Of a stretch of DNA of 64,000 nt, positions 2,231 to 57,331 are shown piece by piece. Position numbers and translations under genes: made by a program. Location of the stretch: the sequence record OQ870555.1; one strand, given 5' to 3'. The notes beneath the pieces were generated by a model. The model was not told where the DNA came from. It did not search any database and saw only the letters and a list, made by a program, of their open reading frames with translations. Position 1 is the stretch's first letter, and each line of letters begins with the position of its first letter. Source of the DNA: Escherichia phage PECP14.

Positions 2231-2725
2231 TTAGACTATTTCTAATGCTTCAATGTTGAAACAGCGTTTTAATTCTTTCTGTAAAACGGCATATTCATCC
2301 CAACGGGAATTATCAGGAATATAAACAAGCTGTTTTAATCGATTTGCGTATAATAACGCCTTGTTACCAATTATTTCCGCGCCACCGTGTTTAATAATTA
2401 GTTTCATAACGGTATTAATAGGATCGCCGCCATTTACATAAGTACCAGACTTACTCAATTGATAATGATAAAGACTCGCATATACATTATCATTTTCAAT
2501 CCATTCCCCTGTTTCTTCATCTTCTTCCCCATCGCTACCGAAACGAGAAGCATTATCATATGCGTGTTCGTTTGCGAAAGCGTCCAGATCACAGCCAGCG
2601 GGAACAAAATGTTCCTCCGTCCAGCCCTCCCCGCAATAGCCAGTATGACAATCAACTAAAACGATCATATCGTGTTTAGCTTCATTCACACTTTCTAGCG
2701 AAAAGCCATATTTTTCTTCTGACAT
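2231..2725 (-). CDS. hypothetical acidic protein (164 aa) with Cys cluster (CHTGYCGEGW...GCD)
   Basis: ORF; acidic run SDGEEDEETGEW; function unknown. Confidence 0.55.
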   Translation of the reverse strand: MSEEKYGFSLESVNEAKHDMIVLVDCHTGYCGEGWTEEHFVPAGCDLDAFANEHAYDNASRFGSDGEEDEETGEWIENDNVYASLYHYQLSKSGTYVNGGDPINTVMKLIIKHGGAEIIGNKALLYANRLKQLVYIPDNSRWDEYAVLQKELKRCFNIEALEIV

Positions 2726-2761
2726 AATTAGTCTCCTAACAATTAACAGGGAAATAGTAAA

Positions 2762-2779
2762 GCGGGGAATAATCCCCGC
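2762..2779 (-). terminator. Hairpin GCGGGGA-ATAA-TCCCCGC (same hairpin as 6168-6185)
   Basis: Perfect 7-bp GC stem; on the minus strand followed by TTTACTATTT; sits between leftward genes 2789-3790 and 2231-2725. Confidence 0.5.
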
Positions 2780-2788
2780 TAGTAATTA

Positions 2789-3790
2789 TTATTCTGTTTC
2801 GGCGCTTTGAGTAAAGGTAGAAATGTCAATACCTTTTACCATTTCATCGATCATTTCAGCAATATTGAAACTCTGTACCATTTCCAACATTGCCGCTTCC
2901 ATTGCCGCGCCTGCTACCGCTTTCGCTTTCGCATTAGTCGGGGCGTACTGGTCAACCGCTACACTCAGCAGGTTAGCGATCACTACACGACCAATCGGCG
3001 TATCAATATAACCTTTAATCATAAACGGCGCTTTTTTCGCCGCTACTTTTGTGATTTGAGTCAGTGCAATTTTACCTGCTTCCAGTTTAGCAGCGTTAAC
3101 AACGGCGGATTTATTAGCGGCAACGATAGAAGATACTTTAGACATAATATTTCCTTTATTTTCAGTAGTTTGCGCATTTGCGCTTGAAGTTTGAGAGTTT
3201 ACAGCCTGTTTTGTTACGTTGTCAAGCGGTAAAAGTGTAAATCCAGCGTTTGCAACGTTTGATTCATTCCCATACTCTAAATAATCGTTAGGGATCAACA
3301 TGTTACCGCTAGCGCGTTCAAAACACAATACGCCAGTTGTTTCGATTGCGTCACTATCAGCACCTTTATAACTGGATGATAATTCACGCCAGATACTATT
3401 TAATAACGATCCGACACTATCAAGTCTGATACTATTTACTTTTGTTGCTGTTACCTGCTCTTTTTCTTGCACGTTATATAATCGCGCAATGTAACCATTA
3501 TGAGACTCACTATAACCAACAATGATAAAATCAATATCAGTTCCCCGACTATTACGGAAAATGTGATAATCACGGTTGAAAATTACTAGCGCCCTTGTCT
3601 GGTCTAGTAATAGCGTGAAATCATCAACTGAATAATGAGTATCATTATTGTCTAAAATTTCATCGTGAATCTTTTCTACAATAGTAGCGGTATGTTGTAC
3701 GCTTGCCGCACTACTACCATCTAGCAGGTTGCGCAAACTACCCTTAATAATAGTGGCGTTTGCTGGTACTGCAATTCTTACAGTAGACAT
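2789..3790 (-). CDS. hypothetical pre-early protein (333 aa)
   Basis: Long ORF with GAGGGAG upstream of the ATG; first gene of the leftward block; no motif recognised. Confidence 0.6.
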   Translation of the reverse strand: MSTVRIAVPANATIIKGSLRNLLDGSSAASVQHTATIVEKIHDEILDNNDTHYSVDDFTLLLDQTRALVIFNRDYHIFRNSRGTDIDFIIVGYSESHNGYIARLYNVQEKEQVTATKVNSIRLDSVGSLLNSIWRELSSSYKGADSDAIETTGVLCFERASGNMLIPNDYLEYGNESNVANAGFTLLPLDNVTKQAVNSQTSSANAQTTENKGNIMSKVSSIVAANKSAVVNAAKLEAGKIALTQITKVAAKKAPFMIKGYIDTPIGRVVIANLLSVAVDQYAPTNAKAKAVAGAAMEAAMLEMVQSFNIAEMIDEMVKGIDISTFTQSAETE

Positions 3791-4135: not shown

Positions 4136-4880
4136 CTTTGTGCATAACCTAAATGATAGTGGTTCTCACTTAGTCGATAGTTTCTTATAGTTATTATTTC
4201 TCTTTAATTTATAAGTATATTATATAATATGAAATAGTTAGTTGGCTAATAGGTTTTTAGAGTATTAATAGTCTGCTAACTGTTTCAGCTGTTACAATCC
4301 ACCAGCGTGATTATCCTCCTAGCGATTGTTAGTATGCTAATGGTCTGATACACGTCCAGACTTATTTGTCAATGAAAAATAACAGCAGAAAATACTTTTT
4401 TGAAAAATCAAGTGGATAACTCATTAAATTTCATTTTTGCTTTTTGTATAAGTTATTAACAGGGTCTAAAACGCTCTGTAAGCGATTCTAAGCGCCTCAA
4501 AGGAAAAGCTAGGCAAGTGCATTGCCTACTAGCCGTTATCGCCACTATGAGGATTTTAGATTTTGTCAAGTAGGGCAAAGCAAATATAAATGAAAAAATT
4601 ACTTGCTAAAATGGTTGTTTTGGTGTTATTCGCGCGCCCATTTCATTAAATTTAGTGCGCCGCTGGACGTTTGCGGGTAGTGGTTTTCTTTACGTTTCTT
4701 TACAAAAATACGCTTGCGCCATTTTCGGGAATAACCTATTATTTATCTCGTAGGACGGCGGGACGGAAACGAAACGCAAGATTACACGGCGGGGAAGTTT
4801 ACCGCCATGCTCTTTAAAAACTAGGGAACATCTTAAAGCCTATCGGCGGTAAACTTATATAATATAAGGAATCGACGATA

Positions 4881-52064: not shown

Positions 52065-52107
52065 TCTCCTTTGCACGCTTTCGTGCCTTCTAAATGCAAA
52101 AAGGGGA

Positions 52108-52140
52108 AGGAGCATAGCCCCCTCCCCTTAGGTTTAATTT
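52108..52140 (-). terminator. Terminator hairpin (AAGGGGAGG / CCTTCCCCTT) followed by TTTTGCATTT on the minus strand
   Basis: GC-rich stem with one bulge plus T-run, directly downstream of gene 52147-52914. Confidence 0.55.
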
Positions 52141-52146
52141 ACCAGA

Positions 52147-52914
52147 TTATTCAGCAGCCGCAGCTTTTGCATCCAGTTTAGCACGCTTAGCGGCACCATC
52201 ATAGTCCTTAGCAACCAGACCACGACGAGACAGCATAGATTTAACACCGCGCTCAGACTTACCAGTTTTCTCAGCGATCTCAGCAACAGTCATGTTAGCC
52301 AGATCCAGACCTTCTAACAGATCTTCACGAGTTTTAGCACTTGAAGTTTCCTGTACCGGCATAGCAGCGATACGACCTTCACGAAGCAGACTCAGAGCTT
52401 TACCACGGATCTGCTTAATATTGCGACCGAAGTGAGCAGCGATAGCTTCAATAGTAGCACCAGCAACAACCTGATTAACGAAATCAGTTTCTTCGTCAGG
52501 AGTGAAGGAACGAACAGCAGCAGCTTTTTCGGTTGGCTTAACAGAAGCAGTCATTTCCAGACTCAGGATCTTACCCTGTACCTGCTTAGCACCGAACTGA
52601 CCACCAGCTACAGCAGCAGCGATTTCAGCGTAAGTATACTGACCAGCATGAGCGTTCAGGAAATCAACCAGTTCAGCTTCCTGCTCAGGAGTCCACGGGG
52701 ATTTCTGTACTTCGTTTGCTTTCTGTACTTCGAAACCTTCTTTACGCAGCTTAGAGCCAACAGAGCGAGCGGTAACGTCTTTGCCAGTCTCGGTAGCCAA
52801 TTCAGCAGCGATAGCAGCTACTTGTTCTTGAGAGATTACAGCAACACCCAGAGCAGTGGCTTTTGCTTTCAGAGACTCGGTTACACCTTCTACGTTCCAG
52901 TTCAGTTTAGACAT
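52147..52914 (-). CDS. DNA-binding protein with four tandem helix-turn-helix-like repeats (255 aa; possibly D5-like)
   Basis: Four repeats of the pattern (V/I)AxIAxx(T/F)G(K/R)...(K/R)xLxxxG; position next to the replication genes. Assignment to D5 is tentative. Confidence 0.55.
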   Translation of the reverse strand: MSKLNWNVEGVTESLKAKATALGVAVISQEQVAAIAAELATETGKDVTARSVGSKLRKEGFEVQKANEVQKSPWTPEQEAELVDFLNAHAGQYTYAEIAAAVAGGQFGAKQVQGKILSLEMTASVKPTEKAAAVRSFTPDEETDFVNQVVAGATIEAIAAHFGRNIKQIRGKALSLLREGRIAAMPVQETSSAKTREDLLEGLDLANMTVAEIAEKTGKSERGVKSMLSRRGLVAKDYDGAAKRAKLDAKAAAAE

Positions 52915-53689
52915 TATTATTTTTCTCCAATAGTTCTTTAATCGACAGGATTTCTATCCCATTCGTTTCGGCTTTCTTATAAGATGAGGAAGAACGTTTT
53001 GATTCATCCTCACAGATTAGGTATTTGACGTCTTTGGTAACGGACTTCTTAACCGTATATCCTAGACTTTCTAAATAGTTTGTTGCATCCGTTCGATTTG
53101 CAAAATCTTGCAAAGATCCGGTAATACAGACCGTGATTCCATTTGGCTGGGTAACTAAATCATCTGTAATGATGATATCCGCTTTAGCACCTCGAATACC
53201 TGTTGAGAATTTCCACGGTAATTCAATAACATCCTTGCCTTGTGGGGAATTTAGCCAGGTTTTGTAATTTTCTCCAGCCTTGCCGTCAGCCTTCACATCG
53301 TGGAAGCTAGTGCAATTTTGGGACAGTTTCTTTGCTGCAACCTCTCCAATAAGAGGAATTCCTAAAGAACCGAGAACTGAACCAAAGTCAGTGTCTCCGC
53401 GAACCTTAGTATTTAACTCGCTAATCAATTTAGCGGCAACCTTGCTACCCACAGCTCCGACCAAATCTTCTTCGGTCAGGTAAAACAGTTCTGAGATCTT
53501 AGTCAGCTCCAGCTTCTCAATAGTTTTCGGGCCAAAGCCCTTTAACTTCATTTTTGTGCAGAAGTTCTCGATTAACTTACTTGATTGCGCTGGACAGTTG
53601 GACTTATTCCTACAGAATAATTGCCCGTTGACAAGATCTAGCTTAGAACCACAAGAGGGACATTGTGTTGGAATTTCGATTTTCATCAA
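52907..53689 (-). CDS. NAD-dependent DNA ligase, C-terminal part (zinc finger, HhH and BRCT region; 260 aa)
   Basis: Four-Cys zinc finger CPSCGSKL...CRNKSNCPAQ, helix-hairpin-helix GFGPKT and a BRCT-like tail; separate ORF from the adenylation-domain gene. Confidence 0.75.
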   Translation of the reverse strand: MMKIEIPTQCPSCGSKLDLVNGQLFCRNKSNCPAQSSKLIENFCTKMKLKGFGPKTIEKLELTKISELFYLTEEDLVGAVGSKVAAKLISELNTKVRGDTDFGSVLGSLGIPLIGEVAAKKLSQNCTSFHDVKADGKAGENYKTWLNSPQGKDVIELPWKFSTGIRGAKADIIITDDLVTQPNGITVCITGSLQDFANRTDATNYLESLGYTVKKSVTKDVKYLICEDESKRSSSSYKKAETNGIEILSIKELLEKNNNV

Positions 53690-53717
53690 ATTTCTTCCTT
53701 ATCAATTTATATAAATA

Positions 53718-53746
53718 TTATAACAAGTATTTAAGCATTTAGCAAC
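53718..53746 (-). promoter_or_regulatory. Early promoter TTGCTA-N17-TATAAT in the gap between the two ligase ORFs
   Basis: Minus-strand -35 at 53741-53746, -10 at 53718-53723, TG immediately upstream of the -10. Confidence 0.6.
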
Positions 53747-53888
53747 TACAATTTTAACTAACTTTGCTTACCCTCGCCATAACTTTCTATCCCTCAACTG
53801 AATGATAATAGTATATACCTAAGCGGCGAAAATGTCAATAACCACTTTATAATTCCGACATGGTAAACGGGTAGCAAAGGGTTACGAA

Positions 53889-54860
53889 TTAGTCGTATAC
53901 TCGCTCTACTATACAAGGGATTACACCACCAGCACGAATCACTCGAATCTGGCAACCGATCTCTAAATCGAGAGCGTTAATATAATCAACGTTATTAAGA
54001 GTTGCTTTAACGATTGTGGCATCATCAATAATCACCGGCTCGAAATAACCAACTGGAGTTACTTTACCAGAAGCCCCTACTTGCCATTCAACTTTAACAA
54101 GTGTGGTAATTTCGCCTTCTTCATCCTCTTTAATAGCAAATGCGCCACGAGGAAATTTATTAGTCCAACCTTCACGGAAGAATTTGTTGTTATCATTAAT
54201 ACGAACAACTTTACCATCTGTCGGAATCCATTTAAAGAAGGAACGAACATTAACAACTGTCAAGAAGTTCTCATTCTCTAGCCAAAGCATATCTTTTAAA
54301 TAGGCTTCTGTAATACCGACTGTTTCCGCTGAACACTGGATACCATATGCAACGAAGATTAAACCACCTTCACCAATACGTTGGATGAAATCATCGCTGT
54401 CTTTCAGGTTAATAGCACCTGAAGCGTAGTTACGTTTGTTCTCTACTTCTTTAGTAATGAGAACTTCACCAGTGATTTGAGTTGGAACTTTTTGGGAAAT
54501 AGTTTTAGGGATGTTCAGCATTTTAACATTATGCGTTACATCATTCCCTAGAATACCGTTACCACGAGTTAACGCTTGAACAAATTCACCATTAATATAT
54601 AATAGAGAAATCGCACAACCATCTAACTTATCAGTTTCAACCTGACCTAATGGATTGAATGGAGCTTTATCACCGCGACCGTAATAGACTTTCTGCAAAG
54701 AATACATACGATACAAATGAGGAATATCACCTTTCGGTCCGATTTCTTCCTCCAGTGGGAATCTTTTAATCAGACGATCATATTCTTCATCGGAAATAAG
54801 ACTCATTCCCTGGTAGTACGCTTCTTGACAACGTTTGATAAAGTCTTTTACATTATTCAT
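53889..54860 (-). CDS. NAD-dependent DNA ligase, N-terminal adenylation domain part (323 aa)
   Basis: Adenylation motif I KLDG (ETDKLDGCAIS) and following nucleotidyltransferase/OB region; ends 200 bp upstream of the C-terminal-part ORF. Confidence 0.75.
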   Translation of the reverse strand: MNNVKDFIKRCQEAYYQGMSLISDEEYDRLIKRFPLEEEIGPKGDIPHLYRMYSLQKVYYGRGDKAPFNPLGQVETDKLDGCAISLLYINGEFVQALTRGNGILGNDVTHNVKMLNIPKTISQKVPTQITGEVLITKEVENKRNYASGAINLKDSDDFIQRIGEGGLIFVAYGIQCSAETVGITEAYLKDMLWLENENFLTVVNVRSFFKWIPTDGKVVRINDNNKFFREGWTNKFPRGAFAIKEDEEGEITTLVKVEWQVGASGKVTPVGYFEPVIIDDATIVKATLNNVDYINALDLEIGCQIRVIRAGGVIPCIVERVYD

Positions 54861-55053
54861 CGTCTGCGATTTCCATTTTGAGTTCTTTGTTATACTGAGC
54901 AGCCATACCAGCTAAATCAGCAGCTTCTTTCAACCACGCATCTTTGTACGCTTTCTGGTTTGGAGTGCCGATACTATCCTGGTAATTGATTCTTGCTATG
55001 GAGAGCAAATTAAGTTTTGCTTGAATCTTTGGAAGTGTTATTGTCATTGCCAT
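54853..55053 (-). CDS. hypothetical small protein (about 66 aa)
   Basis: ORF directly downstream of an early promoter; start set at the ATG 6 nt after GAGAGGA. Confidence 0.4.
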   Translation of the reverse strand: MAMTITLPKIQAKLNLLSIARINYQDSIGTPNQKAYKDAWLKEAADLAGMAAQYNKELKMEIADDE

Positions 55054-55082
55054 AATTGATCCTCTCATCAATTTATATAAAT

Positions 55083-55111
55083 ATTATATATGAAAACTGA
55101 GTCGAAAGCAA
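55083..55111 (-). promoter_or_regulatory. Early promoter TTGCTT-N17-TATAAT
   Basis: Minus-strand -35 at 55106-55111 and -10 at 55083-55088; conserved downstream leader. Confidence 0.6.
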
Positions 55112-55127
55112 GTACATTTATAAAGAA

Positions 55128-55150
55128 AAAGCCAAGAACTAGGCATTCTT
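55128..55150 (-). terminator. Terminator hairpin GCCAAGAA-N7-TTCTTGGC followed by TTTTTCTTTAT on the minus strand
   Basis: 8-bp stem plus T-run at the 3' end of gene 55139-55447. Confidence 0.5.
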
Positions 55151-55447
55151 GGCTTTGAGTTCTTCAGCTCGTTTCTGTACTTCATGCAAGACCTCGGATT
55201 CACTGAGGATTTGCGTAAAAGCGTAGAATAGCTGTGATGTAGTTTCTAGGGTATAAGGAAAAGAGAAGCCGGATTTCGTTGGAAACCACTCTCCAGTAAT
55301 ATCTTGGAGCCAGTAACGAATTCCCATGTATAGATTCCCACGAAATTCAGATACGGTTAGTCTTACTTGTTCCCCCTCCTTCTCCCAAAGCATGATGGAC
55401 TGGTCGTCAACGTGTCCTTCATAGTTTTGATTTACCTGATCGCTCAT
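55139..55447 (-). CDS. hypothetical protein (102 aa)
   Basis: ORF with terminator hairpins at both flanks. Confidence 0.5.
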   Translation of the reverse strand: MSDQVNQNYEGHVDDQSIMLWEKEGEQVRLTVSEFRGNLYMGIRYWLQDITGEWFPTKSGFSFPYTLETTSQLFYAFTQILSESEVLHEVQKRAEELKAKNA

Positions 55448-56241: not shown

Positions 56242-56299
56242 ATTTTTCGATTTCCTTAATTAAGAATTAAACAGAATAGTTCTTTCAAACTATGAGAAT

Positions 56300-57300: not shown

Positions 57301-57331
57301 ATTTAAACTCCTCTCTCAAATTTATGAATCT

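Follow-up and report, generated by a model that had tools for sequence, protein, structure and literature searches.

A probable T5-type heterodimeric NAD+-dependent DNA ligase specified by two genes, ligA and ligB, flanking a predicted promoter-bearing spacer in Escherichia phage PECP14

The 64,000-nucleotide stretch of DNA from Escherichia phage PECP14 (OQ870555.1) that was analysed here, referred to below as the window, carries two adjacent minus-strand genes, ligA and ligB, which are best explained, in our view with high confidence, as encoding the two chains of a T5-type heterodimeric nicotinamide adenine dinucleotide (NAD+)-dependent DNA ligase. Such split ligases are already known, having been reported for T5 in 2005 and annotated in more than 400 phage genomes; the T5 genes are listed as subunits A and B (PMC3632103), names that hundreds of phage genomes also use, and a preliminary description of the window was right in referring to them, since the T5 record (NC_005859) annotates ligA and ligB with promoters between the two. 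The window itself therefore brings nothing fundamentally new, and our comparative results are incremental leads on how and why the ligase was split: a promoter-like element before ligB, syntenic unsplit orthologues, and the occasional occupancy of the gap by a GIY-YIG gene accompanied by a co-conversion-like tract in ligA. The locus is a natural case of an essential replication enzyme made as two chains cut at a domain linker, and a two-chain ligase can help to explain the way LigA clamps a nick and can serve the engineering of split ligases. The parts of the locus that the argument needs first are the following.

53889..54860, minus strand: ligA, predicted catalytic subunit of 323 amino acids (aa), with domain Ia, nucleotidyltransferase domain and OB fold
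53687..53888, minus strand: intergenic spacer of 202 nucleotides (nt) from the ligA stop to the ligB ATG
52907..53686, minus strand: ligB, predicted DNA-binding subunit of 259 aa, with Cys4 zinc finger, HhH and BRCT domains

In the list of open reading frames (ORFs), the first gene spans 53889-54860 on the minus strand (323 aa) and the second spans 52907-53689 on the minus strand (260 aa, counted from a TTG). An ATG at 53686, which lies 3 bases downstream of that TTG and gives a 259-aa product beginning MKIEIP, is almost certainly the true ligB start, because T5 ligB is annotated with 780 nt and chain B of the homologous ligase of Providencia phage PR1 begins MKIQIP. The gap between the genes (53687-53888) measures 202 nt from the ATG and 199 nt from the TTG, in agreement with the distance of 200 bp first given for it. 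LigA matches the Pfam adenylation domain PF01653 (3e-23) and the OB-fold domain PF03120 (9e-22), and its motif I can be read directly as K78-L-D-G81. In the LigA N-terminus, no separate Pfam model matches the first 70 residues, and the alignment to the profile TIGR00575 begins at profile position 4 and residue 7; this region contains YYQGMSLISDEEYDRL, which resembles what we take to be the domain Ia motif. Domain Ia confers NAD+ specificity. LigB matches the BRCT domain (1e-8) and, weakly, the HhH domain (2.5e-4, below the Pfam cutoff), and alignments reaching down to 46% identity show no variation at its four zinc-finger cysteines (C9, C12, C25 and C31). The AlphaFold model of LigB (mean predicted local distance difference test score 81.6) has chain B of the PR1 ligase (9hu3_B) as its best match in the PDB, with further structural matches to 2OWO and 1DGS.

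The two products tile a single full-length ligase. Against TIGR00575, a full-length LigA profile of 652 positions, LigA covers positions 4-378 and LigB positions 388-651, so that the junction lacks no more than nine linker positions and gains no residues; the OB fold ends 0-2 residues before the LigA end, and the first zinc-finger cysteine stands about 8 residues after the LigB start. Because of this tiling and of the alignment coordinates on Escherichia coli LigA (PDB 2OWO), the cut can be assigned to the linker that joins OB fold and zinc finger, and the two chains would together make up a complete ligase with nothing added. Their bit scores (172.7 for LigA and 107.1 for LigB) stay below the curated equivalog cutoff of 444; the two-chain enzyme would work as LigA does without being a canonical LigA equivalog. 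Polymorphic columns across 29 distinct T5-like sequences make up 18, 12 and 67% of the first, second and third codon positions in ligA, and 13, 9 and 40% in ligB, a concentration at third positions that shows both halves to be under purifying selection. The proposal that an NAD-dependent ligase is encoded here as two genes is thus borne out by the Pfam domains and the TIGR00575 tiling, and the arrangement is widespread: a search with the 2.4-kb segment 52700-55100 of the window matched 456 phage records, 429 of which cover at least 80% of the query.

That the halves would act in trans is suggested by the homologous PR1 pair, because it had been crystallised as a heterodimer on nicked DNA, chains A and B being separate. 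In PDB entries 9HU3 and 9I5I, a 339-aa chain A matches LigA (E=2e-106) and a 248-aa chain B, identical to a protein of Providencia phages PR1 and PSTCR5, matches LigB (E=1e-79); the title of 9HU3, released on 2026-01-14, is 'PR1 phage heterodimeric DNA ligase in complex with 21-mer nicked DNA containing phage nick sequence'. In addition, an article that cites the T5 'split NAD+-dependent DNA ligase' describes an archaeal LigN which, when truncated at the equivalent point, is still adenylylated by NAD+ and is unable to ligate (PMC1684257). By analogy with LigA biochemistry, the ligA product would react with NAD+ and become adenylylated on Lys78, while the ligB product would provide in trans the DNA-binding half that belongs to the same chain in normal bacterial LigA. 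From the PR1 heterodimer-DNA structure and the inactive truncated LigN we infer that the halves associate: both polypeptides would assemble around the nick and then seal it jointly, with no splicing, recoding or protein ligation needed.

The spacer between the genes contains several stop codons in each of its three frames, and the ligB frame differs from that of ligA. Its features are as follows.

53810..53838, minus strand: predicted promoter equivalent to T5 P-K28b, TTGACA-N17-TATACT, inside the T5 RefSeq feature 'promoter P-K 28b'
53754..53780, minus strand: mini-ORF MARVSKVS of eight codons, between P-K28b and P-K28a
53717..53745, minus strand: predicted promoter equivalent to T5 P-K28a, TTGCTA-N17-TATAAT, inside the T5 RefSeq feature 'promoter P-K 28a'
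53694..53700, minus strand: putative Shine-Dalgarno sequence of ligB, AAGGAAG, invariant in the T5-like alignment

The upstream element (53838-53810) matches the consensus hexamers at 11 of 12 positions; the downstream one (53745-53717) matches at 10 of 12, has a TG upstream of its -10 hexamer, and lies 30 nt before the ligB ATG. Both pairs of hexamers had been pointed out in the preliminary description, and both were found at the spacing given there and within the two promoter features of the T5 record. The P-K28b equivalent is identical in sequence to that of T5, and the spacer as a whole is almost identical to its T5 counterpart. Among the same 29 sequences, 8.9% of the gap columns are polymorphic, mostly in the first 40 nt past the ligA stop, and because the second codon positions of ligA and ligB stand at 12% and 9% and the third at 67% and 40%, respectively, the promoter-bearing part of the spacer is at least as constrained as protein-coding sequence. 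The predicted promoters P-K28b and P-K28a are credible because they are annotated in T5, because the gap is nearly invariant, and because a promoter-like element holds a constant position before ligB throughout the clade (see below). They are named in the T5 record, and our literature search found no paper reporting experiments on the P-K28 promoters.

A search of Rfam gave no match for the spacer, its predicted RNA fold was no better than that of shuffled sequence (z = -0.74), and no ORF with a family match lies inside the gap of the window. The mini-ORF MARVSKVS is preceded by GAGGGA and is kept in T5, EPS7 and SP3 (with one K-to-R change in SP3); this conservation does not set it apart, the remaining gap sequence being equally conserved, and it is possibly just part of the P-K28b leader. 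The sequence that follows P-K28a belongs to a repeated leader motif, TATAAT-N6-ATAAATTGA, of which the window holds 8 copies, all on the minus strand (at 4204, 11240, 45108, 45209, 53702, 55068, 56285 and 57317), against 0.8 expected. One of these copies (55068-55088) lies upstream of ligA, where the leader ATTTATATAAATTGA that follows the promoter-like element at 55083-55111 is identical to the leader after P-K28a. The copy at 56285 sits where T5 annotates P-N26, and the copy at 57317 reads TATAATAGATTCATAAATTTG, which we take to be the classic P-N25 sequence.

The arrangement was compared across 89 loci gathered from GenBank and IMG/VR, with LigB identities of 38-100%. In all 89, the two genes share a strand and ligA is the one directly upstream; ligA ends in a stop of its own and ligB has a separate start. 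No fused ligA-ligB form occurs among these loci, and the gap measures between 37 and 1359 nt. The 120 best LigB homologues in a large protein database are likewise all short stand-alone proteins, 247-263 aa long except for two truncated entries. In front of ligB, 26 of 30 representative gap types have a TTGxxx-N17-TATAAT element whose end lies 22-41 nt short of the start codon, the 65-118 nt gaps of distant environmental phages included, and this constant position is striking; the 30 types come from related loci and are not independent trials, and the gap sequences cannot be aligned at that distance. Gaps at the short end of the range (37-120 nt) contain nothing beyond a promoter or a ribosome-binding site, and long gaps carry unrelated small genes, among them DprA-like, radical SAM and crAss001_48-like genes and several without a match. 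In Vibrio T5-like phages and related IMG/VR contigs (loci L007:2284-2844, L041-L043 and L045:4211-4903), the gap holds a conserved DprA-like gene (phrog_768, 9e-49) together with one or two small ORFs, and the promoter-like element of ligB follows them; the only classified record of this group, Chloris, is a Thalassavirus.

Several observations weigh against this account of the enzyme and its spacer. Promoter-like hexamers are not enriched over the region (7 matches observed and 8.4 expected by chance), so that hexamer matches alone are not evidence, and dinucleotide-shuffle tests of the gap promoters were modest, reaching p<=0.05 in 19 of the 30 gap types. Two distant loci with a 37-nt gap have no promoter element, and an internal promoter is for that reason not obligatory for the split. 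Furthermore, the PR1 proteins are only 54-63% identical to LigA and LigB of the window, no paper on 9HU3 was found in the literature search, and the structure is known here from its entry title and chain sequences; association, activity and transcription in this phage are deduced from sequence and homology.

The genes around the ligase suggest how the spacer may be used. The neighbouring features are listed here.

55128..55156, minus strand: terminator-like hairpin, after a PC4-like gene
55083..55111, minus strand: promoter-like element TTGCTT-N17-TATAAT, preceding the small ORF and ligA, with a T5 promoter annotated at the equivalent place
54853..55053, minus strand: small ORF, phrog_8267, 66 aa from its ATG (72 aa from a TTG at 55071 according to the ORF finder)
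52147..52914, minus strand: D5 gene (DNA-binding protein or transcription factor, after the T5 annotation), with a Pfam sigma-70 region 4-like helix-turn-helix
52101..52129, minus strand: terminator-like hairpin of 13 pairs with a T run, just 3' of D5

Reading towards ligA, the order is the PC4-like gene, the hairpin at 55128-55156, the promoter at 55083-55111, the small ORF and ligA, the last 8 nt of the small ORF overlapping the ligA start. The small ORF matches phrog_8267 (6e-44 over residues 7-72) and is found in Epseptimavirus-like phages and absent from T5, whose match begins at query base 241. On the other side, the ligB stop and the D5 start overlap by 8 nt (ATGTCTAA), and this overlap makes it probable that D5 translation is coupled to that of ligB and that the ligB promoters serve D5 as well. 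Transcription of the ligB-D5 unit is likely to stop at the hairpin at 52101-52129; in Erwinia phage KEY, a terminator is annotated at the equivalent place. Both hairpins are strong, and they bracket a unit of the small ORF, ligA, ligB and D5 with internal promoters.

From these features we infer that the 202-nt spacer in this phage is a promoter-bearing transcription-unit boundary. The ligA gene would be transcribed together with the small ORF from the upstream promoter, and these transcripts would probably read through into ligB, because no terminator was predicted between the two genes. The ligB and D5 genes would additionally be transcribed from P-K28b and P-K28a, ending at the terminator after D5, and the spacer would thereby supply two strong T5 early promoters, a leader and a ribosome-binding site. 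Such an organization would predict that the promoters are active in this phage, that transcription reads through from ligA, and that ligB-D5 message exceeds ligA message.

With regard to how the split arose, unsplit relatives are informative. A HMMER search with LigB, run exhaustively, returned more than 100 clusters of stand-alone LigB-like proteins. It also returned ten compact ligases made as a single chain (555-578 aa), whose LigB-like part starts at residue 311-334. Four contigs with unsplit ligases of 557-576 aa were examined (L092:6001-7674, L093:6001-7731, L090:2151-3857 and L091:4875-6563), and three of them (L090, L092 and L093) carry T5-family marker genes. The two longest, L092 and L093, have a PC4-like gene, the ligase, a D5 homologue, a DnaB-type helicase and a DnaG-type primase in the same order as the window, and their D5 homologue is 44-47% identical to that of the window. 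A neighbour-joining tree of concatenated LigA and LigB (556 columns) sets the split and the compact fused forms, taken together, apart from the long bacterial-type LigA proteins (98.5% bootstrap support). In this tree the fused forms are mostly basal, and monophyly of the split forms has bootstrap support of only 10-31%. The simplest reading of these sequences is that an ancestral compact ligase underwent fission in situ, which is supported by the unsplit ligases found at the same locus in distant T5-like phages.

It is tempting to go further and to regard the split as a conserved regulatory design, in which the OB/zinc-finger linker of the ancestral compact ligase gained a promoter, LigB came to be co-expressed with D5 from strong promoters of its own at a different and probably higher level than LigA, and LigB could have a role independent of LigA, for example in binding T5-type site-specific nicks. 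The gap promoters in 26 of 30 types, the syntenic fused forms and the PR1 complex with its 'phage nick sequence' are the points left standing for this proposal, which we consider tentative and rather unlikely as a whole.

An origin that would be compatible with the heterodimer, and that we also consider rather doubtful, is that a free-standing homing endonuclease gene broke the ligase gene and was later lost, leaving the spacer behind. A parallel exists in Aeromonas phage Aeh1, whose nrdA gene is split by the mobE homing endonuclease gene (PMC3045599). The unsplit compact ligases at the same locus in distant T5-like phages fit such a history, and the ligA-ligB gap can, to judge from two relatives, host a homing endonuclease gene: a 218-aa GIY-YIG ORF (PF01541, 26 bits, cutoff 22.6) is present in the gap of Salmonella phages SP3 and vB_Sen_SG_WM_RUS_R2 only. 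In both phages this ORF (L035:4184-4840 in SP3, NC_048001) is inserted directly behind the ligA stop, with the P-K28b/P-K28a segment otherwise intact downstream of it, at a site equivalent to that just after 53889 in the window. The last 216 nt or so of SP3 ligA are 69-77% identical to other T5-like phages, against 92-99% for the remaining gene, which suggests a co-conversion tract from homing. RefSeq labels the SP3 ORF 'NAD-dependent DNA ligase', apparently a misannotation.

Nevertheless, the endonuclease gene is found in 2 of about 430 T5-like records, and because it is rare, recent and located in an already split locus, this insertion is not the cause of the ancient split. The other gap cargo is heterogeneous and of a non-endonuclease kind, gaps of 37-120 nt have nothing but a promoter or ribosome-binding site in them, and the ligase halves are devoid of element-derived interaction tails such as those of Aeh1 NrdA. 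The preliminary description had also raised the possibility that the gap of this phage is itself a remnant of a mobile element. This was not upheld by the comparison with the gaps of relatives, in which the window's gap showed no endonuclease remnant and, when aligned with SP3, lacked the GIY-YIG gene cleanly.

Another possibility is that the two halves have partly independent roles, LigB being made in excess together with D5 and acting alone as a nick- or DNA-binding factor, for instance at T5-type site-specific nicks, so that the split would allow a different dosage of the two proteins. In favour of this, ligB comes first in a ligB-D5 unit preceded by two strong promoters, and ligA is served by the upstream promoter only; the conservation of the promoter before ligB throughout the clade and the mention of a 'phage nick sequence' in the title of 9HU3 point in the same direction. 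However, ligB lies immediately downstream of ligA in 89 of 89 loci, as expected of an obligate pair, two lineages lack a gap promoter, and the promoters may serve mainly D5. We consider this alternative to the heterodimer improbable.

It is highly improbable that a split intein, an intron, ribosomal bypassing or frameshifting unites the halves into one polypeptide once they have been transcribed or translated. Precedents are known in fractured phage genes joined by split inteins and in bypassing of the T4 gene 60 type (PMC2677866; bioRxiv 10.1101/2022.08.31.505936). The nine profile positions missing at the ligase junction, with none extra in the TIGR00575 tiling, leave no room for intein halves, and intein, intron and recoding were all rejected on this ground together with the stops in all frames of the gap, its lack of an Rfam match and its insignificant RNA structure. 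Moreover, ligB has its own Shine-Dalgarno sequence and ATG, and the PR1 structure contains separate chains. Finally, an assembly or sequencing error interrupting one continuous ORF, the outcome named in the preliminary description as fatal to a split gene and to which the indels in both genes of the low-quality UNVERIFIED record GE_vB_N5 might lend some colour, deserves practically no credence and was rejected, given that the same two ORFs and 202-nt gap recur in hundreds of independently sequenced phages, that more than 400 genomes share the two-gene arrangement, that every gap frame is closed by stops with ligB out of frame with ligA, and that the PR1 homologue was solved as two chains.

The source of the window is a T5-like phage (Demerecviridae), nearest to Epseptimavirus-type Salmonella phages, an assignment made because of the database matches of 52700-55100, among which Salmonella phage Sepoy is the closest annotated one (98.9%) and T5 stands at 92%. 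The top match (99.4%) bears the name 'Campylobacter phage A148', Listeria or Campylobacter labels are attached to other T5-like records, and the database assigns one identical protein to Brucella melitensis; such Campylobacter, Listeria and Brucella host labels look doubtful on records of T5-like enterobacterial phages. Some related records also carry questionable gene annotations. That of EPS7 (NC_010583) annotates only the last 129 codons of ligB (locus 2613-3002), the full 259-codon ORF (L002:2224-3002) being intact and 99% identical to that of the window, and the record of phage STWB21 calls its LigB homologue 'tail completion protein'.

The phage ligase can be set beside several known systems. 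Escherichia coli LigA (PDB 2OWO) has the same domain order (Ia, nucleotidyltransferase, OB, zinc finger, HhH, BRCT), with the KxDG motif and the Cys4 finger common to both, and residues 214-320 of phage LigA and 4-123 of phage LigB align with its residues 284-390 and 402-529, respectively. It differs in being one chain of 671 aa, as opposed to 323 plus 259 aa in the phage, whose nucleotidyltransferase domain is about 50 residues shorter. The compact ligases of uncultivated T5-like phages (P0152, P0223, P0230 and others) fall in one clade with the split ligases and occupy the same locus; they are continuous through the linker between the OB fold and the zinc finger, have a D5-like gene 1-17 nt downstream, and show no internal promoter site. 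The nrdA gene of Aeh1 is, like the phage ligase, a replication-enzyme gene present as two adjacent ORFs whose products reassemble. In that case, however, the endonuclease gene is still present and the fragments have element-derived interaction domains, whereas LigA and LigB are separated by a gap with predicted promoters and have no added tails. The ligase of Providencia phage PR1 (9HU3/9I5I) has homologous A and B chains with the same domain division and, at 54-63% identity to the window proteins, is encoded around a gap of 192 nt with another sequence (L039/L044). The closest counterpart is T5 itself (NC_005859), whose ligA and ligB (T5.116 and T5.117) have the same gene order and the same break point, with P-K28b followed by P-K28a between them. 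Their products are 95-96% identical to those of the window (96% for LigA), the 202-nt gap is nearly identical including both promoters, and the ligB/D5 overlap is alike, the window phage differing from T5 by the extra 66-aa ORF (phrog_8267) between the upstream promoter and ligA.

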